Shown here: piece by piece, positions 3,313-28,668 of the stretch
Layout: the number at the start of each line of letters is the position of its first letter
How positions within the stretch are numbered: the stretch's first letter is position 1
Assembly: GCA_964622465.1 (NCBI GenBank)
Contig: CAZUQH010000006.1
Span: 1 to 39,294 of the forward strand
DNA from: an uncultured bacterium
Lineage (GTDB): Bacteria > CG03 > CAZUQH01
DNA length: 39,294 nt
Direction of reading: 5' to 3'
The notes under the pieces: model-generated
What the model was told of the DNA's origin: nothing
Databases searched by the model: none
The model's input: only the letters and a program-made list of their open reading frames with translations
Position numbers and translations under genes: made by a program

Positions 3313-4275
3313 ATGACAGGTAAATGTCTCGTTACAGGTTGTGCTGGATTTATTGGTTCACATCTTTGCGAATCGCTACTGCGTGATAACTGTGTAATTA
3401 CGGGTATAGATTGTTTTACTGACTACTATTCGCAGGGAAGAAAAGAACAAAACCTGAAGAACTTTATAGGTAACAAAAGGTTTAAATTGCTCAAGCGAGA
3501 GATGTCAACTGATAAGTTAACTGATGCGGTACAGGATACAGATTACGTTTTTCATCTGGCTGCGCAGCCAGGCGTCCGCAATGGATGGGGTGATGATTTT
3601 GAGGTCTACGTGCAGCGTAACATAATCGCAACACACCGTCTCCTTAAAGCAATCAGGGAAGTAAATTCTAAGGTAAAAAAAGTCATTCTTGCATCTTCGA
3701 GTTCCATATACGGAGATAACCCCGTACCGATGAAAGAGGAACAGTTGCCAAAACCTGTTTCTCCGTACGGAATAACAAAAGTTGCATGTGAGAATCTCGG
3801 ACGTCTCTATTTCAAGCAATTCGGATTGCCGGTTGTTACTCTTCGATATTTTACTGTGTATGGCCCAAGACAGAGGCCGGATATGGCTTTCTACAAATTC
3901 ATAGACGGACTCTTAAATGGAGAGCCGATTGTTGTATATGGCGATGGGAGCCAGAAGAGAGATTTTACCTATATTGATGATGCGGTTGAATCAACTTTGA
4001 AAGCGGCGGAAAAAGGTATTCCCGGTGATATATACAATATTGGTGGCGGGACAGAGATAACCGTTCGTGACGCTGTGTCTTTACTGGAGGACATCGCTGG
4101 AAGGGAAGTCAGGATAGAATTTTGTCCTTCTCAACCGGGGGAGATGCATGAGACACTTGCCGATAACAAACGCGCCCGTGATATTCTTGGGTTTGTCCCT
4201 GGTACAGATTTACGCGCAGGGCTGAAGAAAGAATTAGAATGGTTCCTAAAAGAACAAGAAGAAGAACAAAAATAG
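3313..4275 (+). CDS. NAD-dependent epimerase/dehydratase (SDR family nucleotide-sugar enzyme)
   Basis: MTGKCLVTGCAGFIGSHL Rossmann motif and SPYGITK (YxxxK) catalytic motif. I moved the start from track position 3205 to ATG 3313, which lies just after the upstream stop. Confidence 0.8.
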   Translation: MTGKCLVTGCAGFIGSHLCESLLRDNCVITGIDCFTDYYSQGRKEQNLKNFIGNKRFKLLKREMSTDKLTDAVQDTDYVFHLAAQPGVRNGWGDDFEVYVQRNIIATHRLLKAIREVNSKVKKVILASSSSIYGDNPVPMKEEQLPKPVSPYGITKVACENLGRLYFKQFGLPVVTLRYFTVYGPRQRPDMAFYKFIDGLLNGEPIVVYGDGSQKRDFTYIDDAVESTLKAAEKGIPGDIYNIGGGTEITVRDAVSLLEDIAGREVRIEFCPSQPGEMHETLADNKRARDILGFVPGTDLRAGLKKELEWFLKEQEEEQK

Positions 4276-5450
4276 CACATGTAATAACGAAGCTGGAACT
4301 TGGCGGTGCACAACAGAATACGCTCTATACGCTTAATCATCTTGACCCAAAGCGTTACAGAGGGTATCTGTTTTCCGGCCGTGGGGGTATTCTGGATGAT
4401 GAGGCCTCCAGTGCAGTGGGATATGAAACCAGATTTATTCCATCGCTTGGACGCCGGATATCTCCATTTCATGACTTTATTACTCTGGCGCACATCTGGC
4501 TCTTGTGTATATTGATTAGACCTGATATTATTCACACCCATTCTTCAAAGGCGGGGATAATAGGACGGTGGGCTGCTTTCTTTGCAGGTGTGCCTGTCCT
4601 TATTCATACCTATCACGGATTTGGTTTTAACGATTTTCAGCCACTCCCTGTAAGATGCATCTTACAGTTTACCGAATGTCTCACGGCACCTATAACTACT
4701 GCCCTCGTAGCCGTGTCAAGCGAAAATATCCAGAAAGGGCTATTAGCGGGCATAGGGAAACGAGAACAATACCTTGTTATTCATAGCGGTATAAAGGTGA
4801 GTGACTTTGCAGCGGTTCCAGAGGACAAAATAGAAAACACAAGGAAACAGATTGGTATTAAGAAAGGTATTCCTGTTATAGGGATGGTCGGTTGTTTCAA
4901 ACCACAGAAGGCGCCACTGGATTTTGTTTATCTCGCGAAGAAAGTTTCAGACAAACGTACTGATGTGCAATTTGTATTGATTGGTGATGGTTTGTTACGT
5001 CCTCAAATAGAAAAAGAGATAGAACGCCTGAATCTGAAGGATAAGTTAATTCTTACGGGTTGGAGGCGTGATGTTTCCTCCTGTGTCGCGTTATTTGATA
5101 TTCTCGTTCTCACTTCTTTATGGGAAGGACTGCCACGTGTTTTTCCGGAGGCAATGGCTGCTGGCAAGCCAATTGTTGCTACCTGGGTTGATGGAGCGCG
5201 GGAAGCGGTGCTACATGGGATAAACGGGTATCTTGTAGCTCCGCACGATGTTGACAAAATGAGTGATTATGTGCTACGGTTACTGGACAATCCAGACGAA
5301 AGAGGGCGTTTTGGCGCCTATGGGAAGAGGCGCGTTTACCCCCAATACGATATAGATGAAATGACGCGTCAGCTGGATGAACTTTATACAACTGTCATTG
5401 CGAGGAAAGTGCGTAAGCACTTGACGAAGCAATCTCGTACCAGTGAATAA
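4239..5450 (+). CDS. Glycosyltransferase family 4 (GT-B, GT1 superfamily)
   Basis: KIAHVITKLELGGAQ N-terminus and the LTSLWEGLPRVFPEAMAAGKPIVAT (EX7E-type) C-terminal domain. The last ~19 codons and the stop lie inside a repeat element (see findings). Confidence 0.8.
   Translation: MVPKRTRRRTKIAHVITKLELGGAQQNTLYTLNHLDPKRYRGYLFSGRGGILDDEASSAVGYETRFIPSLGRRISPFHDFITLAHIWLLCILIRPDIIHTHSSKAGIIGRWAAFFAGVPVLIHTYHGFGFNDFQPLPVRCILQFTECLTAPITTALVAVSSENIQKGLLAGIGKREQYLVIHSGIKVSDFAAVPEDKIENTRKQIGIKKGIPVIGMVGCFKPQKAPLDFVYLAKKVSDKRTDVQFVLIGDGLLRPQIEKEIERLNLKDKLILTGWRRDVSSCVALFDILVLTSLWEGLPRVFPEAMAAGKPIVATWVDGAREAVLHGINGYLVAPHDVDKMSDYVLRLLDNPDERGRFGAYGKRRVYPQYDIDEMTRQLDELYTTVIARKVRKHLTKQSRTSE
5394..5434 (+). 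repeat. Hairpin repeat copy (+ orientation)
   Basis: GTCATTGCGAG-gaAAGTGCgtaaGCACTTga-CGAAGCAATC. The inner stem is 6 bp with a GTAA loop. The copy lies inside the 3' end of the GT4 CDS. Confidence 0.85.
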
Positions 5451-5730
5451 AATATATACTGTCTACATAATGGCGAATGAAAGAAATACAGTCCTGTATA
5501 CTGGTATAACCAGTAGCCTTCGTAAGAGAGTATTTGAACACAAGGAAAAGATAATAAAGGGTTTCACCAACAAGTACAATGTAAGCAAATTGGTGTATTA
5601 TGAGTTGTTTAGTGATGCCCTGACGGCGATTACCCGAGAAAAGCAAATTAAGGCGGGCTCACGGGATAAGAAACTTGTACTGGTAAATGGATTTAATCCA
5701 AGATGGCGGGATTTGTATGAAGAGTTATGA
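5443..5730 (+). CDS. GIY-YIG nuclease family protein (COG2827/UPF0213-like)
   Basis: 95 aa with KIYTVYIM...VLYTGIT...LRKRVFEH...REKQIK, matching the GIY-YIG core order (GIY, YIG, R, E). GTG start. The ORF is bracketed by inverted hairpin repeats. Confidence 0.8.
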   Translation: MNKIYTVYIMANERNTVLYTGITSSLRKRVFEHKEKIIKGFTNKYNVSKLVYYELFSDALTAITREKQIKAGSRDKKLVLVNGFNPRWRDLYEEL

Positions 5731-5762
5731 GATTGCTTCGCCCTTCGGGCTCGCAATGACAA
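5731..5762 (-). repeat. Hairpin repeat copy (- orientation)
   Basis: GATTGCTTCGCCCTTCGGGCTCGCAATGACAA. Outer stem ATTGC/GCAAT, inner stem GCCC/GGGC. 32/32 identical to the copy at 7057-7088. Confidence 0.9.
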
Positions 5763-5766
5763 CTGG

Positions 5767-7032
5767 ATGACGATTTCAGAGAAAATAATCAGCGTGCACC
5801 TGACTGAAAATCCGGGACGCAAAGTAATGCCTGGTGAACTTGTGGTTGTGCATGTCGACAGAGTGTTATTGCAAGATGGAACCGGCCCGCTTGCCTGGAG
5901 TCGCTTTGATGAACTTGGTCTTCATGGGCCGGCAAAACCAGAATCAATAGTATCTTTTTTGGACCACGCTTCCCCCTCTCCAAGGCAGGAGCTTGCAAAT
6001 TGTCATAAGTTGCTAAGAGAGCGTGCGCGCGAATATGGAATCACCTTGAGCGATATTGAATGTGGCATCTGCCATCAGCGGATGATAGAAACGTTTGTTC
6101 ATCCGGGTGAACTTATCCTTGGCTCTGATTCCCATACTTGTACTTCAGGTGCGCTTGGTGCTTTTGCATGCGGGGTCGGGTCAACGGATGCCGCTATTGC
6201 TGTGGGACTTGGAGAACAGTGGCTTAGAGTGCCTGCCTCCTGGCTCATAAAAATTGAAGGAGAACTTAACCGATGGGTAACTGCGAAGGATATCATGCTT
6301 TACCTTATTGGAATGATTGGCGCTGATGGCGGGACATACAAAGCACTTGAGTTTGCCGGGAAGACAGTAGAGAAAATGCTAGTGCCTGAACGGCAGGTAC
6401 TCTGTAACATGGCAGTAGAGGCAGGTGCAAAGACAGGCATTGTCTCATCAGATGAAATGACTAAAAATTATCTCAGAGAACAGGGGCGCGAGCAGGATTG
6501 GAAAGAGATGTCTTCTGATTCCGATGCTCGATACGAACGTACAATTGAAATATCTGCAGAGACCCTGAAACCTATGGTTGCACAACCTCATACCGTTGAT
6601 AATGTCCAGCCAGTTAGCGAAATTGCGAAAGAGAAAGTTCATATTGACCAGGTATTCATTGGTTCTTGCACAGGCGGGAGAATTGAAGATTTGAGGATTG
6701 CTGCGCAAATTCTGAAAGGAAAAAAGAGAGCAACGAATACGCGTCTTATAATAACACCTGCTTCTCAGGCAACGTATGAAAAGGCGCTCAAAGAGGGGAT
6801 ACTGGAGCAGTTCGTGAGCGCAGGCGGTTTGGTAACGGCGCCTGGTTGCGGTCCCTGCTCTGGAGTGCATCTTGGTATTCTTGCTGACGGAGAGAAGTGT
6901 CTTGCGACCCAGAATCGGAACTTCCGCGGACGAATGGGTAACCCAAATTCAGAGGTATATCTATCTTCGGCTGCAGTTGCTGCATGCTCAGCTATCAAGG
7001 GATACATTGCTGACCCGCAGGAATTATCATAG
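5767..7032 (+). CDS. Aconitase-superfamily hydro-lyase large subunit (3-isopropylmalate dehydratase / homoaconitase LeuC-HacA type)
   Basis: 421 aa, the short type. It has GSDSHT, FIGSCTGGR and PGCGPCSG Fe-S cluster/substrate motifs characteristic of LeuC-type large subunits. Confidence 0.8.
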   Translation: MTISEKIISVHLTENPGRKVMPGELVVVHVDRVLLQDGTGPLAWSRFDELGLHGPAKPESIVSFLDHASPSPRQELANCHKLLRERAREYGITLSDIECGICHQRMIETFVHPGELILGSDSHTCTSGALGAFACGVGSTDAAIAVGLGEQWLRVPASWLIKIEGELNRWVTAKDIMLYLIGMIGADGGTYKALEFAGKTVEKMLVPERQVLCNMAVEAGAKTGIVSSDEMTKNYLREQGREQDWKEMSSDSDARYERTIEISAETLKPMVAQPHTVDNVQPVSEIAKEKVHIDQVFIGSCTGGRIEDLRIAAQILKGKKRATNTRLIITPASQATYEKALKEGILEQFVSAGGLVTAPGCGPCSGVHLGILADGEKCLATQNRNFRGRMGNPNSEVYLSSAAVAACSAIKGYIADPQELS

Positions 7033-7056
7033 GTGGATAGTTTTTGGCTGGTAAGG

Positions 7057-7088
7057 GATTGCTTCGCCCTTCGGGCTCGCAATGACAA
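7057..7088 (-). repeat. Hairpin repeat copy (- orientation)
   Basis: Identical 32-mer to 5731-5762. It is preceded by ctggtaagg, which resembles the tactggtacgg extension of other copies. It sits between the large- and small-subunit genes. Confidence 0.9.
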
Positions 7089-11582: not shown

Positions 11583-12549
11583 AATTGTTTCCACTGGTTC
11601 TTATGTTCCAGAAAAGATTCTTACAAATTTTGACCTGGAGAAAATGGTCGATACTTCTAATGAATGGATTATGACCAGGACAGGAATAAAAGAACGCCGG
11701 ATTGCGTCGGCTGAACAGGCGACAAGCGACCTTGCTATAGAGGCAGGGAGGCAGGCGATTGAAAGGGCAGGTTGCTCTAAAGAAGAAGTCGACCTCCTTA
11801 TAATCGCTACAATTACACCGGATATGTTATTCCCATCTACTGCGTGTATAGTCCAGCATAAACTTGGCCTGAAGCAAATTGCTGCTTTTGACCTGAGCGC
11901 CGCATGTGCTGGTTTTATTTATTCACTTGCAACCGCTGATACACTCATAAATTCCGGTGGTTATAAATGCGCTCTGGTGATAGCAAGTGAGACACTTACG
12001 AGGATTACTGATTGGCAGGACAGGTCGAGTTGCGTATTGTTTGGAGATGGTGCAGGTGCCTGTGTTTTGAAGCCAGATGATGATAATGCTGGTTTTATCG
12101 GGTTTGATTTGCATGCAGATGGTAAATACGGTGACCTGTTATATCAACCAGCTGGTGGTTCGCGCCTGCCTGCAAGCCACGAAACAGTTAACGCAAGGCA
12201 GCATACTATCCAGATGAAAGGTAACGAAGTTTTCAAGGTATCTATAAATAGCATGGCCGATTCAGCGGAATCATTGCTTGATAAGCATAAGGTAAAACCA
12301 GAAGACATCGCTCTGGTAATACCACACCAGGCAAACTTGAGGATTATTCGTGGGTTGGCGAAGAAACTGACTATTCCAATGGCCCGGGTTGCAGTAAATA
12401 TAGACAGGTATGGGAATATGTCGGCAGCAACTGTAGCCGTTGCTCTGGATGAAGCCGTGCAGAGTGGTCGCGTAAAACAGGGTGACCTTATATTACTTGT
12501 TGCTTTTGGTGGCGGCTTTACCTGGGGTTCAGCACTCGTAAGATTGTGA
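11575..12549 (+). CDS. fabH: 3-oxoacyl-ACP synthase III
   Basis: TNEWIMTRTGIKERR, the active-site Cys context (AACAGF), and HQANLRI...GNMSAAT. Start moved to ATG 11575 (MSRIVSTGSYVPE). Confidence 0.9.
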   Translation: MSRIVSTGSYVPEKILTNFDLEKMVDTSNEWIMTRTGIKERRIASAEQATSDLAIEAGRQAIERAGCSKEEVDLLIIATITPDMLFPSTACIVQHKLGLKQIAAFDLSAACAGFIYSLATADTLINSGGYKCALVIASETLTRITDWQDRSSCVLFGDGAGACVLKPDDDNAGFIGFDLHADGKYGDLLYQPAGGSRLPASHETVNARQHTIQMKGNEVFKVSINSMADSAESLLDKHKVKPEDIALVIPHQANLRIIRGLAKKLTIPMARVAVNIDRYGNMSAATVAVALDEAVQSGRVKQGDLILLVAFGGGFTWGSALVRL

Positions 12550-12565
12550 GAAAAAGGATATATGT

Positions 12566-13595: not shown

Positions 13596-13724
13596 GTTGC
13601 CGTTGCGAGGTATCTTTTAGGAGACGGCGGGCAATTCCATTAGTGTTACGGGATTGCTTACGCAACCTACGCAACCTGAAGGTTGCGGCTACAGCTTGGC
13701 GGCTACCGCGGCTCGCAATAACAG
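13596..13724. repeat. Composite hairpin-repeat pair (degenerate + copy, spacer, expanded - copy)
   Basis: gccGTTGCGAG...GGGCAATtc (degenerate), then the spacer ccattagtgttacgg, then GATTGCTTA...CGCAACCtgaaGGTTGCG...GGCTCGCAATAAC. There are internal tandem duplications of acgcaacct and gcggctac. It fills the acpP-fabF gap. Confidence 0.7.
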
Positions 13725-14985: not shown

Positions 14986-15664
14986 TATCCTCGCTGCAGA
15001 AAAAACGCTCGGTTTAAATTTTCAGGACAAATCGTTACTTGCCCTCGCACTTACCCATCGTTCCTATGCCCTGGAGCAAGGCCTGCCTGCTGACTATAAC
15101 AACGAGCGTCTCGAATTCTTGGGCGATGGCGTACTTAATCTGGTTGCTGCAGTGTACTTGTATAAGAAGTATCCAGACAAACAGGAAGGTGAACTCTCTC
15201 AACTAAGGGGCGTTCTTATCAGTCGTGATGGTCTCTACCGCTGGGCCAGGAAAATAGGTATTGCCAAGTTTATATTACTTGGCGCAGGTGAAGAAAAGAG
15301 CGGTGGAAGGAAGAAAAAACGGGTGATTGCGAGCACAATAGAAGCAGTCGCTGGCGCAGTATTCCTGGACAAGGGCTACGAAGCATCGGCCAAATTTGCA
15401 CTTAGTTATTTTGATTCACTGACGCGGATTAGAATAACCGAGTACAAAAACCGGCTGCAGACCATAGTTCAACAGCGGTATCACGAACCGCCGAAGTATG
15501 AGGTGCTAAAGGTTTTTGGGCCGCCGCACAGGCAGAAATTCCGTGTTGCAGTAATTATTGATGGTAAAACAATAGCGCTCTCTACTGGCTGGAGTAAGAA
15601 AGAAGCAGAGATAGATGCTGCGAGGAAAGCGCTCAGAAAAATGACTGCAAAGCAGCCATCCTGA
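14975..15664 (+). CDS. rnc: Ribonuclease III
   Basis: NERLEFLGDGVL signature plus a C-terminal dsRBD (GPPHRQKF...GWSKKEAEIDAA). The last codons and stop lie in a repeat copy. Confidence 0.9.
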   Translation: MQNDILAAEKTLGLNFQDKSLLALALTHRSYALEQGLPADYNNERLEFLGDGVLNLVAAVYLYKKYPDKQEGELSQLRGVLISRDGLYRWARKIGIAKFILLGAGEEKSGGRKKKRVIASTIEAVAGAVFLDKGYEASAKFALSYFDSLTRIRITEYKNRLQTIVQQRYHEPPKYEVLKVFGPPHRQKFRVAVIIDGKTIALSTGWSKKEAEIDAARKALRKMTAKQPS

Positions 15665-15724
15665 GCGTCAGCGAAGGATCCCATTTCTGTTACGAGATCC
15701 TTCAGACTTCGCCCTCATGATGAC
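15655..15724. repeat. Composite hairpin-repeat pair, GAAGGATC subfamily
   Basis: GCCATCCTGAGcgtcagCGAAGGATC, then the spacer ccatttctgttacga, then GATCCTTCagacttcgccCTCATGATGAC. GAAGGATC and GATCCTTC form a perfect 8-bp stem across the spacer. Confidence 0.75.
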
Positions 15725-15742
15725 AGTCTCAGGAGGTAAAGT

Positions 15743-26153: not shown

Positions 26154-27293
26154 TTATTTCTTGGTGGCTGGGTAACGCTGTCGCAGGATTTCGCAGGCGC
26201 AGGAAAACAGTTTTATTATTTCAGGAATATGAAAGGTGTAAAGAGCAAGTACGCCTGATTGTCGCCAGGAAAAATGCACATGACTGAACAGGTCTATAAG
26301 AAAGAACTTATGCGAAATATGCATATCTTTTGTAGCTTTTGCGAGGCGTATACTTTCAAAATACGGCGATAAACTGTCATTCCTGGAGTGTAAAATAATA
26401 AGATGGCTAGAGAAATGCTCGAGAAATCTATCGGTTGATTGCGATTCCAGAATCCTTCTTTGATATGGGGAAAGAAGGGTTAAAGTGCGCAAGTGATCTT
26501 TACAGGTTATTAAAGAAAGGAACTGACGCCCTTCACGGGAAAGGCATTTTTCCATATTGTTTATGTCAGCTGCAAAGTCTTTCTTTTTCTGCTGCGCGAT
26601 TTTAAGTAGTATTTCCTGGTCATGAGGATTTGTTACAAAGTCGGTATTCTTTTCCAGAAAAACCCATCTTCCATCCGCTGGTGATGGTAGAGTTTGGGCG
26701 TATGGATATTTTCCCGACAAATGGTGAAGCACAAGGGCGTACGAGTCGTAGTATCCGCCAAATGATATTACGAATTTGACTCTCGAACTGATTGATGGCC
26801 TGGTAGCAGCGATAATCGAAGCAGGGCCACTAAATGAAATTCCCATAATCCCTGCTGCACGTTCGTCAACGTCAGGACGGTTTACCAGCGTTTGGAATGC
26901 ACGTTCTACCTGGTCAGTGGTTTCCGGTCTTATTTTCATCTGTCGCGCAAAGGTGAAATCAGCGAGCATAGTCGTGAACCCGCTTGCAGCGAAAACCTTT
27001 GCCACGTGATTTAAGAAAGGGTTATCCATGCCATCTGGATTTGCTCCATGTACAAGCAATAGAGCGGGACGTGGTTTTAGAGATGGTATGTAATACAAAG
27101 TTCCACGGAGGTCGCTTTCTCCGTAAGGAATTTGAATGTTTTTTGATTTGATATGAGGAGAAAGAGGGAAAGATAGAAACATCAGGTGTGGTATTGCTAT
27201 AATGGCACGTCCTATCGTTTCCACCTGGCGCCGGAAAACCAGCGCAAGTACCACGATAATGAATAAAACAACGAACGCTCCCAAGCAAGACAT
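26154..27293 (-). CDS. Membrane-anchored alpha/beta-hydrolase-fold protein
   Basis: This is the only minus-strand CDS I call. It has an N-terminal TM segment (LGAFVVLFIIVVLALVF), LLVHGAN and a GISFSG (GxSxG) nucleophile elbow, with later HSRND and SHVH as candidate Asp/His. The substrate is unknown. Confidence 0.6.
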   Translation of the reverse strand: MSCLGAFVVLFIIVVLALVFRRQVETIGRAIIAIPHLMFLSFPLSPHIKSKNIQIPYGESDLRGTLYYIPSLKPRPALLLVHGANPDGMDNPFLNHVAKVFAASGFTTMLADFTFARQMKIRPETTDQVERAFQTLVNRPDVDERAAGIMGISFSGPASIIAATRPSISSRVKFVISFGGYYDSYALVLHHLSGKYPYAQTLPSPADGRWVFLEKNTDFVTNPHDQEILLKIAQQKKKDFAADINNMEKCLSREGRQFLSLITCKDHLRTLTLLSPYQRRILESQSTDRFLEHFSSHLIILHSRNDSLSPYFESIRLAKATKDMHISHKFFLIDLFSHVHFSWRQSGVLALYTFHIPEIIKLFSCACEILRQRYPATKK

Positions 27294-28668
27294 AGATGTA
27301 TTATATAGCAGAATTGCCAGGAAATGTCAACGGATTTTTGGTGGTATTTTAAGGGAGATAGAATACGCAAGACAGTTGACGGACTGTCCAGTATGGCTTG
27401 TCGGGGGTGCGGTACGAGATATTATATGTCATTGCGAGGTCAGCGTAGCTGACCGAAGCAATCTCATTACTGGTACGGGATTGTATACGCGGTCTCGCAA
27501 TGACAATGTTGATATTGACCTTGTTGTTTGTGGCGACTGGAGAAGATTTACAAGCGGACTTGCAAGAAAATTCGGAGCAAAACCAACTTTTTTTCCACAA
27601 TTTCTTGGAGGACATTTTACCATTCAGACAGAAAAAAATAAGTACGAAGTTAATATTACTCATACTCGCAGGGAATCGTATATCAAGCCTGGCTCACTTC
27701 CACGAGTAGCGCCAACGACGCTTGAAGAAGATTTGGGACGCCGCGATTTTGCTATGAATGCTATTGCTGTTTCACTCAATCCAGAAAACTATCTGCAAAT
27801 TATAGATGCTTATGATGGTATTGAGGACATTCTACATAAGCGCATACGGGTTCTAAAGAAGGACAGTTTCAGGGAAGACCCGACCAGAATTATAAGAGCT
27901 ATCCGCTATGAAGTGCGGCTCGGCTTCCGTATGACGCAGGACACTCTGACCCGGATGAAAAATGCGATTAATGCCGGTCATATTGCACATATACCGGGCG
28001 AGCGCTTTCGGGATGAACTTGTGCTCAATTTGAAAGAACGCACTGCTTATGAGGGCATTCTCCGTCTCTTCAAATATGGTGTTTTTAGTTCCGTATGGCC
28101 AGAATTGACTATGACCACTGCAAAAAAGCGTTATATTCAACGGATAATTACCGGATGGGAATCATTGCGTAAGCTGGATTTAGGTGTTCCTGTTGATAGA
28201 TGGTTATGCTTGTTGATTGCGATATGCTGGGGCGCTTCCCGTAATAGCACGGGAGAAAAATCGTTGCTTCTCAAAAGAGAAATCGCAAAACATCTGGGGT
28301 TGGATAAGCGGCAATCGCAGGCGCTTATCAACTCAGAAGTGCAAATCAGGAAAGCGCAAAGAATAATTTACAAAAGGGATACAAGTGCATCTGCAATTAC
28401 AACTGCACTTGATGGTTGCGGTGAATATGCACTTGCTATACTGTTTCTTGTTGTAACATCAAGACGCGCAAAAAACCAAGTTATGCGTTACGTTAACGAC
28501 TGGAAAAAGAGAAAGCCACTGCTTAACGGTAACGACTTAAAAAAGATGGGTTTGGAACCAGGACCCGGGTTTCAGAAAATCCTGACTGAGCTCCGACTGG
28601 CACAGATAGACGGTAAGATATCTAACCGTCGCCAGGCAAAACAATTTGTCCTGTCGTCTAATAGCTAA
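27259..28668 (+). CDS. CCA-adding enzyme / poly(A) polymerase family (class II tRNA nucleotidyltransferase) carrying an in-frame repeat insertion
   Basis: WLVGGAVRD ... DIDLVV, RRDFAMNAIA and EDPTRIIRAIRYEVRLGF. The start is uncertain: ATG 27259 and ATG 27202 both overlap the 5' end of the divergent hydrolase gene. Confidence 0.75.
   Translation: MNKTTNAPKQDIDVLYSRIARKCQRIFGGILREIEYARQLTDCPVWLVGGAVRDIICHCEVSVADRSNLITGTGLYTRSRNDNVDIDLVVCGDWRRFTSGLARKFGAKPTFFPQFLGGHFTIQTEKNKYEVNITHTRRESYIKPGSLPRVAPTTLEEDLGRRDFAMNAIAVSLNPENYLQIIDAYDGIEDILHKRIRVLKKDSFREDPTRIIRAIRYEVRLGFRMTQDTLTRMKNAINAGHIAHIPGERFRDELVLNLKERTAYEGILRLFKYGVFSSVWPELTMTTAKKRYIQRIITGWESLRKLDLGVPVDRWLCLLIAICWGASRNSTGEKSLLLKREIAKHLGLDKRQSQALINSEVQIRKAQRIIYKRDTSASAITTALDGCGEYALAILFLVVTSRRAKNQVMRYVNDWKKRKPLLNGNDLKKMGLEPGPGFQKILTELRLAQIDGKISNRRQAKQFVLSSNS
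27427..27505. repeat. Composite hairpin-repeat pair inside the CCA-enzyme CDS
   Basis: tGTCATTGCGAG-GTCAGCgtaGCTGAC-CGAAGCAATC, then the spacer tcattactggtacgg, then GATTGtatacgcggtCTCGCAATGACa. It is read through as 26 codons (CHCEVSVADRSNLITGTGLYTRSRND). Confidence 0.85.

Follow-up and report, generated by a model that had tools for sequence, protein, structure and literature searches.

Ssn nucleases are specific for single-stranded DNA (ssDNA) and are tied to a class of CGTC/TGTC-tagged repeats (Chenal et al. Nat Commun 2025; PMC11893778). Four Ssn homologues display ssDNA-specific binding and cleave upstream of the hairpin; the characterised homologues show no cleavage of double-stranded DNA (dsDNA), and SsnA does not bind RNA. 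The catalytic residues of Nm SsnA are Y6, Y17 and E64, and mutagenesis of the Neisseria NTS shows that cleavage and binding depend critically on the GTC positions 5′ and the C position 3′ of the palindrome. The Neisseria system benefits its host, as it restricts ssDNA that comes in from outside. An IS-like NTS-ssnA-NTS layout has already been remarked on, and Rickettsia is counted among the SRM-rich genera (PMC11893778).

Repeats of this type are also known as CGTC-tagged REPs, which carry an unpaired tag (CGTC or TGTC/CCTC) at the end of the palindrome and have a stem that starts with AT (Di Nocera, De Gregorio and Rocco, BMC Genomics 2013; PMC3733652). CGTC REPs were judged to be without a dedicated enzyme, and no CGTC-flanked transposase was found (PMC3733652).

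The window analysed here is a stretch of DNA of 39,294 nt. Positions 5393–5761 of the window probably constitute an SRM-ssnA-SRM cassette, which would be the autonomous partner of gene-less inverted doublets and would be copied from an Ssn nick, with completion by the host. The parts of the cassette are as follows.

5393–5434, + strand: left hairpin unit (arm A), T-GTCATTGCGAG, inner hairpin AAGTGC/GTAA/GCACTT, then CGAAGCAATC
5435–5448, + strand: lineage-specific tail of 14 nt directly after the left unit, TCGTACCAGTGAAT, including the ssnA GTG start
5443–5730, + strand: ssnA-like gene with a GTG start, predicted single-domain GIY-YIG nuclease of 95 aa
5731–5761, − strand: right hairpin unit (arm B), an inverted copy with inner hairpin CCC/GAA/GGG (CCC/ttc/GGG on the + strand)

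The arms of arm B are the exact reverse complement of those of arm A, and 5443–5730 is the only open reading frame between the two units. There are 8 nt from the left unit to the GTG of ssnA and 0 nt from its TGA to the right unit. A GT4 open reading frame (4239–5450) runs through the left arm and stops 8 nt inside the GIY-YIG open reading frame; most of its 18-residue tail, VIARKVRKHLTKQSRTSE, is encoded by the left unit. The tetranucleotide AACT is present at 5390–5393 and at 5761–5764. Arms, hairpins, open reading frame, spacings, GT4 overlap and AACT are all found where a first-pass annotation of this DNA had placed them. The inverted structured repeats that it saw around the GIY-YIG open reading frame are beyond chance, with four occurrences of the two-arm pattern in the window and none in 100 shuffles.

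The 95-aa protein matches the Pfam GIY-YIG domain (PF01541, E = 9.4e-15) at residues 5–76. A pairwise BLASTP alignment to the Neisseria gonorrhoeae SsnA orthologue is ungapped over 87 residues, of which 51% are identical (E = 1e-32), and tblastn to this orthologue gives E = 3e-22. Residues Y8, Y19 and E66 do not vary among 30 homologues, and their spacing of 11 and 47 residues is that of Nm SsnA; the catalytic Tyr/Tyr/Glu set of the Ssn nucleases is present in the window protein. An Ssn protein was defined as a single-domain GIY-YIG protein of ~94 aa with E < 1e-10 to N. meningitidis SsnA (cd10448 clade), and the Pfam, tblastn and BLASTP results place the window protein within this definition. 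By these comparisons it is a predicted Ssn family nuclease. None of the NCBIfam models matched the protein, and a PDB sequence search gave no match. An assignment to the GIY-YIG homing endonucleases was rejected, as the GIY-YIG domain fills the 95 aa and the characterised homologues spare dsDNA.

The consensus of the arms is T-GTCATTGCGAG, a variable hairpin, and CGAAGCAATC-YC. A logo of 323 units displays G98, T99 and C97 (per cent) preceding ATTGC and C99 following GCAAT; at position −1, 71% of the units have T and 20% have C. GTC is found immediately 5′ and C immediately 3′ of the palindrome, as in Ssn repeats, and the unpaired tag with its AT-starting stem (here TGTC-ATTGC) is that of the CGTC-tagged REPs. 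Judged by sequence, the window repeats are members of the CGTC/TGTC-tagged REP class. The stem consists of a 5-bp ATTGC/GCAAT helix, an internal loop, and then an inner hairpin varying from 4 to 45 nt. The mini-hairpin motif C-GNA-G is present in 113 of 270 distinct units, compared with a shuffled mean of 45, an enrichment that suits a hairpin at the DNA level.

The published degenerate SRM search sequence, HGTCWYN(0-2)YYVSBRHN(0-5)WNVSBRGN(0-2)RNCYNB, has 0 matches in the window and matches in just 3 of 80 homologue loci. It does detect repeats around the Neisseria, Azospirillum, Shinella and Aeromonas genes. The family had initially been taken to be undescribed; this does not hold, since the repeats are CGTC/TGTC-tagged REPs, known since 2013 (PMC3733652), and the gene-repeat pair is the Ssn/NTS-SRM system of 2025 (PMC11893778). 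A literature search on miniature inverted elements with GIY-YIG, COG2827 or the arm sequences yielded nothing relevant.

The link between gene and arms is tight across phyla. The sample comprised 80 metagenomic homologue loci (182 kb), in which an upstream (+) unit is present in 64/78 loci (82%), a downstream (−) unit in 59/77 (77%) and both in 49/75 (65%). These counts bear out the earlier proposal that the GIY-YIG gene and the hairpins are a functional pair. Hairpin repeats both 5′ and 3′ of the gene, as in the Ssn system, are thus found in the window and in the homologue loci. The arms are outward-facing as in the window, and in 19 loci the stop codon is 0 nt from the downstream unit. The 182 kb contain 327 units, compared with 2 after shuffling. 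The order (+) unit, gene, (−) unit is also seen at Shinella and Aeromonas homologues with canonical SRMs, and the N. gonorrhoeae orthologue gene is itself bracketed by canonical NTS repeats. Gene-less inverted doublets are common as well, as are tandem arrays and insertions in frame within genes: 61 of 68 gene-less +/− neighbouring pairs are spaced 5–60 nt, and doublets also occur in tandem.

The window has further copies of the repeat at gene boundaries and within operons, including three doublets.

7046–7087, − strand: solo unit C with tail, in the leuC-leuD spacer, core identical to arm B
13599–13723, both strands: gene-less inverted doublet, consisting of a degenerate left unit (+), a 14-nt tail and a right unit (−)
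15642–15725, both strands: decayed inverted doublet between the RNase III and acyl-CoA dehydrogenase genes
27427–27505, both strands: inverted doublet D(+)/E(−), in frame within a gene of the CCA-adding/poly(A)-polymerase family

Solo unit C is missing from the orthologous leuC-leuD spacer of the relative L058 (see below). The doublet at 13599–13723 sits between the acyl-carrier-protein gene and fabF. The decayed doublet shows matching changes in both inner arms (GAAGGATC / GATCCTTC); it is missing in all three relatives and changes the C-terminus of RNase III. Doublet D/E is placed between the GGxVRD and DxD motifs of the CCA-family gene. The sister species has D alone, and the window has 39 nt more (27473–27511). 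In the protein, the repeats encode an insert of 27 aa. An intron-like reading of D/E was set aside: the insert is in frame, it falls in a loop that is length-variable in homologues, and half of the doublet is kept in the sister species. A half-site search allowing 2 mismatches gave 65 matches, compared with ~44 in shuffles, which is at noise level, and no further credible copies were found.

Three syntenic relatives (L056, L057 and L058), 87–90% identical to the window, were used for comparison. Synteny with them breaks at repeat sites only. The GT4-leuC junctions, which the first-pass annotation had singled out for comparison, show that the whole cassette, gene and both arms, is gone from 3/3 relatives; filled and empty junctions are unclean and differ by 9–18 nt. 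The tree is (window,(L056,L058)), and it polarises the copies found only in L058, after ackA and inside leuB, as gains. Both relatives in this tree are without the cassette and are each other's sisters, and gain and loss of the cassette itself are therefore not polarisable. At orthologous sites of these genomes the cassette, the solo units and the gene-less inverted doublets each vary between presence and absence, and the insertions are at gene ends and at in-frame positions in tolerant parts of genes. The comparison shows that the cassette and the gene-less copies appear and disappear in the manner of small mobile elements. A LeuC scan of genome contigs for close relatives gave a best match of 57% identity and no empty site; the source organism is thus without a close species representative in the scanned contigs. 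Exact look-ups of the window SsnA and LeuC returned the same cassette-bearing locus only, with no polymorphic population variant.

The 14-nt tail (YCGTACCAGTRATG) is found again beside gene-less copies of the same lineage, as had been noted, and does not recur in the wider family: across 323 units there is no conservation beyond +2. It was therefore dropped as a family feature and as part of a recognition site. A lineage-specific tail that the left arm has in common with the gene-less copies agrees with the earlier view that the gene-less copies derive from the gene-proximal end.

AACT does occur on both sides of the cassette, as observed before, and its reading as a target-site duplication is not upheld. 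Of 100 cassettes or doublets, 1 shows direct repeats of 4 nt at the ends, where permutation gives 0.5 on average. In L058, the polarised gain after ackA is likewise free of a target-site duplication. The AACT pair is probably a coincidence. The element is not a DDE-type MITE either, for which a target-site duplication of fixed length would be expected.

The cassette resembles the Ssn/NTS-SRM system in its single-domain GIY-YIG protein of ~94 aa, with 51% identity to the Neisseria orthologue and the same catalytic residues, and in its oriented hairpin repeats on both sides of the gene, with GTC 5′ and C 3′ kept. It differs in several respects. The Neisseria stem is a continuous helix of ~9 bp with a short loop, whereas the window stem is 5 bp plus an internal loop; the window arms face opposite to those of the N. 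gonorrhoeae locus; the window subtype is unmatched by the published degenerate pattern; and the window host is an uncultured lineage of environmental metagenomes. With the CGTC-tagged REPs (PMC3733652) the units share the unpaired CGTC/TGTC tag and AT-starting stem, a short unpaired tail after the stem, the frequent opposite-orientation dimers and the location of some copies within genes. The described families CGTC-1 to -4, however, have continuous stems of 8–9 bp with loops of 4–5 nt, and these are not found in the window units, where the stem is split.

The first-pass analogy to REP/RAYT pairs and to IS200/IS605 is apt. In REPIN/RAYT systems (REPtrons), inverted hairpin repeats also flank an enzyme gene without target duplication, the non-autonomous unit is an inverted doublet, as in the window, and clusters resemble BIMEs; this is a shared way of working, not membership. 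Membership was rejected because the window enzyme is a GIY-YIG hydrolase and not a HUH (Y1) tyrosine transposase, and the tag is TGTC and not GTAG. RAYTs are reported to be strictly vertical, whereas the closest SsnA homologues (66–71% identity) are scattered over unrelated phyla with near-identical arms, which suggests that SsnA has moved horizontally. Subterminal ssDNA hairpin recognition, lack of a terminal duplication and small size are features in common with IS200/IS605. Assignment to that family was also rejected, as the cassette has neither TnpA (HUH) nor TnpB and its one open reading frame is GIY-YIG. Ssn cuts only 5′ of the hairpin, in one strand orientation, and unlike in IS200/IS605 both ends are therefore not cuttable on the same strand.

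The palindromic elements of Rickettsia, said to have been presented by Ogata and colleagues in 2000, are reportedly small and insert in frame into protein-coding genes, where they are tolerated. The window elements likewise include small palindromic repeats tolerated in frame, but are shorter and mostly intergenic.

By homology to characterised SsnA, the protein would bind the repeat only as a folded single strand, with ATTGC/GCAAT as the outer stem and the variable mini-hairpin inside. It would read the GTC and the C that directly flank the stem on its 5′ and 3′ sides, respectively, and would make a single-strand nick a few nt 5′ of the GTC. Given the orientation of the arms, the nicks would land just outside the cassette, one per strand. 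The cassette would be the autonomous element and the doublets its non-autonomous counterparts, much as in RAYT/REPIN; copying would begin where Ssn nicks DNA that is transiently single-stranded, and host replication or repair would finish it. GIY-YIG enzymes are hydrolases and are not known to carry out strand transfer; to serve as a transposase, the protein would have to rely on host functions. Mobilisation of the repeats by the nuclease itself is unproven.

A rather improbable alternative is that the host has domesticated the pair for ssDNA restriction, as has been suggested in Neisseria, with repeats kept for the benefit of the host and now immobile. In such a system, by the same modest odds, Ssn would cut incoming or exposed ssDNA beside the repeats and so tune recombination or transformation near flagged genes. 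The SsnA knockout, which gives 5-fold higher transformation with NTS-bearing DNA only (PMC11893778), the single ssnA copy in the 39-kb window and the position of units at gene boundaries agree with this. However, unit content is strongly different among genomes that are 87–90% identical and includes recent polarised gains, the cassette is missing from both sister lineages, the closest SsnA homologues with their near-identical arms are in unrelated phyla, and the in-frame insertions within genes seem parasitic rather than useful. It should be noted that domestication and mobility are not mutually exclusive.

It is very unlikely that a free-standing homing-type GIY-YIG gene invaded a pre-existing inverted doublet as its landing site, while another enzyme spreads the repeats. 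The gene-less doublets do have the layout of the cassette minus the open reading frame, which is placed exactly in the doublet spacer, but the 95-aa protein lacks the separate DNA-binding domain of homing GIY-YIG enzymes, dsDNA is left uncut by characterised homologues, Di Nocera et al. (PMC3733652) report no CGTC-flanked transposase, and arm sequence and protein are conserved together across phyla. An action of the repeats as RNA (REP-like terminators, mRNA stabilisers or structured RNA), with the adjacent nuclease incidental or regulatory, is extremely unlikely. Many CGTC/GTAG REPs are downstream of open reading frames and probably transcribed (PMC3733652), and window units lie within operons. 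Against this, Rfam gave no family at gathering threshold in the whole window, and a relaxed scan of 5300–5850 gave just two sub-threshold sRNA matches, both within the open reading frame and none near the arms, so an RNA family was ruled out. Promoter and terminator scans found no T-run terminator and no promoter-like site at the units, which are in both orientations relative to transcription, and SsnA lacks RNA binding.

The preferred reading remains a mobile SRM-ssnA-SRM cassette with gene-less partners. Counting against it are the mismatch with the published SRM pattern, the unclean junctions, the single ssnA copy in 39 kb, and the host-serving role and opposite arm orientation in Neisseria. 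A bolder version, advanced tentatively and on balance doubtful, is that cassette and doublets represent a genuine class of bacterial DNA transposon, as its autonomous and non-autonomous forms. The sole element-encoded enzyme might then be the 95-aa GIY-YIG ssDNA nickase, without a HUH, DDE or serine/tyrosine recombinase; host replication or repair might complete the copying, and in-frame landing within essential genes might be possible.

Which enzyme, if any, spreads the CGTC-tagged REPs has been an open question since 2013; the Ssn work of 2025 supplies a candidate but does not show that the repeats move. The window and its three syntenic relatives form a natural before-and-after series for Ssn cassettes: one site with or without a whole cassette, two gains of solo units with known polarity, doublets resembling cassettes with the open reading frame deleted, and in-frame insertions in the CCA-adding-family gene and in leuB. 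With this series, whether Ssn cassettes are transposons becomes directly testable. A repeat subtype that is very abundant in the environment (GTCATTGCGAG...GAAGCAATC) is missed by the published SRM search pattern, and the reach of the system is thus probably underestimated. Many short spurious open reading frames and odd protein tails in metagenome annotations stem from these TGTC-tagged repeats.

The cassette at positions 5393–5761 is a small open reading frame between two inverted hairpin repeat units. Re-reading of the sequence confirms the layout in the first-pass annotation (arms, hairpins, open reading frame, 8-nt and 0-nt spacings, and overlap with the glycosyltransferase gene GT4).

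5393–5434, + strand: left unit, T-GTCATTGCGAG, a 20-nt insert with an AAGTGC/GTAA/GCACTT hairpin, CGAAGCAATC
5443–5730, + strand: ssnA-like open reading frame, GTG start, 95 aa, the sole open reading frame between both units
5731–5761, − strand: right unit, left-unit arms in reverse complement around a CCC/TTC/GGG hairpin

The left unit ends 8 nt before the GTG, the TGA touches the right unit, and the inverted repeat reaches one base further outward (T...A). The GT4 open reading frame (4239–5450) runs through the left arm, acquires VIARKVRKHLTKQSRTSE as a tail and terminates 8 nt into the GIY-YIG open reading frame; the final 18 GT4 residues are the translated left arm (5393–5450). The ssnA GTG overlaps the GT4 end by 8 nt and lacks a Shine-Dalgarno sequence, thus ssnA may be translationally coupled to the host GT4 gene. 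At other loci, TGnTACAAT/TATAAT boxes ~7 nt before the start codon, between the unit and the start, hint at leaderless transcripts.

The 95-aa product has a Pfam GIY-YIG match (E = 9.4e-15). SsnA of Neisseria meningitidis is a single-domain GIY-YIG protein of 94 aa (Chenal et al. 2025, PMC11893778). It binds the hairpin repeat NTS, CGTCATTCCCGCGMAVGCGGGAATCYRG, solely as single-stranded DNA, cuts a few nucleotides upstream, and has no action on double-stranded DNA or RNA (PMC11893778). A tblastn search of a plasmid collection gave a match (E = 3e-22) in an N. gonorrhoeae chromosome filed as a plasmid (PLSDB entry of 2.17 Mb; NZ_CP119142.1, 1881316–1882376), where an SsnA orthologue lies between canonical NTS repeats. 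The window protein shows 51% identity to it over 87 residues without gaps (E = 1e-32). In this strain the nearest ssnA ATG is not in the conserved reading frame, thus the gene may be a pseudogene. Here the NTS orientation is (−) gene (+), opposite to that of the window arms. An alignment of 30 homologues shows no variation at residues Y8, Y19 and E66, which have the same spacing as Y6, Y17 and E64 of N. meningitidis SsnA, which were mutated in PMC11893778. Judged by its sequence, the 95-aa protein is shown to belong to the Ssn nuclease family.

Relatives of the window protein number >1,800. Outside its own population, the closest (66%–71% identity) are in Nostoc, Elusimicrobia, Dehalococcoidia and Alphaproteobacteria bins, and the same arms are found at one Dehalococcoidia and one Nostoc locus. 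In a metagenome scan, 80 loci encode homologues 58%–69% identical to the window protein. Within 150 nt of the gene there is an upstream (+) unit at 64/78 loci and a downstream (−) unit at 59/77; both are present at 49/75, and at 19 loci the downstream unit abuts the stop codon (0 nt). The units number 327 in 182 kb, versus 2 after shuffling. Gene and arms are coupled tightly and in fixed orientation, which bears out the enzyme-repeat partnership first proposed from the window. The likeness to REP/RAYT pairs proposed with it was also right, and is drawn in PMC11893778 for the NTS-ssnA-NTS layout, together with insertion sequences and IS200/IS605; there, at least one Ssn-related motif (SRM) lies near 71% of ssnA homologues, and on both sides of 42%.

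At the metagenome loci the repeat consensus is T-GTCATTGCGAG-[4–45 variable nt, 237 distinct]-GAAGCAATC-(T/C)C. In NTS, the GTC directly 5′ of the palindrome is critical for cleavage and the C directly 3′ for binding (PMC11893778); the window repeat retains both. The published degenerate SRM search sequence nevertheless matches none of the window copies and 3/80 homologue loci, whereas it does detect repeats around the Neisseria, Azospirillum, Shinella and Aeromonas genes. Because protein and repeat contacts fit Ssn and the published pattern fails, the window carries a distinct repeat subtype of the Ssn/SRM system. An earlier survey defined CGTC-tagged REPs, with a tag that is often TGTC, stems starting with AT, frequent opposite-orientation dimers and some copies within genes, and concluded that they have no dedicated enzyme (Di Nocera et al. 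2013, PMC3733652).

Four matches to the two-arm pattern lie in the window, versus 0 in 100 shuffles. Besides the cassette, there are further copies:

7046–7087, − strand: solo unit in the leuC–leuD spacer, core same as the cassette right arm
13599–13723: doublet (gene-less inverted pair)
15642–15725: decayed doublet after the RNase III gene
27427–27505, +/−: inverted doublet

Folded as single-stranded DNA, each unit forms a 5-bp ATTGC/GCAAT stem, an internal loop and an inner hairpin, and doublet folding is well below that of its own shuffles (z = −4.5). C-GNA-G mini-hairpins are enriched in the inner part (113/270 distinct units, versus a shuffled mean of 45). Since DNA hairpins of the d(GCGAAGC) type have unusual stability, this enrichment suits structure at the DNA level; an RNA-level role of the repeats is unsupported.

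The junction ...AATG-(A)-GATTGC is common to the window doublets, which look like the cassette minus its open reading frame. A 14-nt tail that the cassette left arm has in common with gene-less copies nearby was noticed at the outset. This sharing stands, but the family consensus has no conservation outward of the (T/C)C end; thus the shared tail marks a lineage-specific amplification. The two inner arms of the decayed doublet have changed alike with complementarity kept (CGAAGGATC/GATCCTTCAG replacing CGAAGCAATC/GATTGCTTCG), which suggests that one half was copied from the other or that pairing is under selection. The insertion alters the RNase III C-terminus (...RKMTAKQPS*). A second ssnA was found neither in the window nor in ~60 kb of relatives' sequence.

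Gene-less units are mostly tail to tail, and 61/68 adjacent +/− pairs are 5–60 nt apart. Doublets also occur in tandem arrays, e.g. five in locus L071. The L071 (1837–2351) and L061 (2040–2357) arrays, in which three to five near-identical doublets follow one another with periods of ~106 and 123 nt and spacers of ~12 and 51 nt respectively, are reminiscent of REP BIME clusters. The Azospirillum gene, between sufB and sufC, is also flanked by doublets.

The doublet at 27427–27505 is inside a CCA-adding/poly(A)-polymerase-family open reading frame (27202–28668), between the GGxVRD and DxD motifs. The insert (27427–27511) is in frame between GGAVRD and DIDLVV and encodes 27 residues, CHCEVSVADRSNLITGTGLYTRSRNDN. 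Other homologues have a 7–8-residue loop or their own variable inserts at this position, and alignment to PDB relatives starts only at the DxD motif. The sister-species orthologue (P0241, 80% identity) has the first unit alone, the window having 39 additional in-frame nt. P0241 starts at residue 20 of the window open reading frame, thus translation probably begins at the ATG near 27259.

Three syntenic contigs of related genomes (L056, L057, L058) were reached via two GT4 homologues, 86%–87% identical to that of the window. They show 87%–89% identity to the window over ~15 kb, and the alignment is interrupted only at four repeat-bearing spacers. All three lack the cassette, with the GT4 stop 3 nt before the leuC ATG, and all three lack the decayed doublet; the leuC–leuD solo unit is missing from L058. 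L056 and L058 resemble each other (90.5%) more than they do the window, so that from these relatives the cassette event cannot be polarised as gain or loss. Two copies found only in L058 are gains: one after ackA, where one base is replaced without duplication, and another that sits in frame within the N-terminal region of leuB and is missing from both the window and L056. This leuB copy (L058 10587–10700) is a unit plus rearranged sequence containing GLLRPVTRPRND, and LeuB is 398 aa in L058 versus 375 aa in the window. There are 9–18 nt of difference between filled and empty junctions, thus the insertion events are not perfectly clean. Four-nt direct repeats are found at the ends of 1/100 cassettes and doublets (permutation mean 0.5). 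The AACT pair flanking the cassette, initially considered as a doubtful target-site duplication, is therefore best read as coincidence. Together these loci show presence/absence polymorphism and no target duplication.

In the sister species (L056 and L057) the leuC–leuD spacer holds another inverted-repeat element of ~130 nt (12421–12550; ACAGAACGGCT ... AGCCGTTCTGT), unrelated to the TGTC-tagged units. Thus two repeat families have hit this spacer in different lineages. The window organism's only close relatives are in JGI metagenomes 3300033141, 3300033148 and 3300033153; the best LeuC match in the genome collection, where a pattern-based scan may miss genomes, is 57% identical (Gastranaerophilales bin).

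From the published enzymology, the Ssn protein would bind the folded single-stranded unit and nick 5′ of GTC. With arms facing outward, each strand would be nicked once, just beyond the cassette; such nicks might, more speculatively, start copying of cassettes and doublets through host replication or repair. The transposon reading is weakest at one point: a GIY-YIG hydrolase alone cannot join DNA. A function as in Neisseria, restriction of incoming single-stranded DNA, is a live explanation and is compatible with mobility; the two are not exclusive.

Contrary to what was first supposed, the family is not undescribed, since the Ssn/SRM system (PMC11893778) and, earlier, the CGTC-REP class (PMC3733652) have been published. 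The kind of element is known; what is new is a repeat subtype missed by the published search pattern. The value of the window is as comparative material for testing the mobility of Ssn cassettes.
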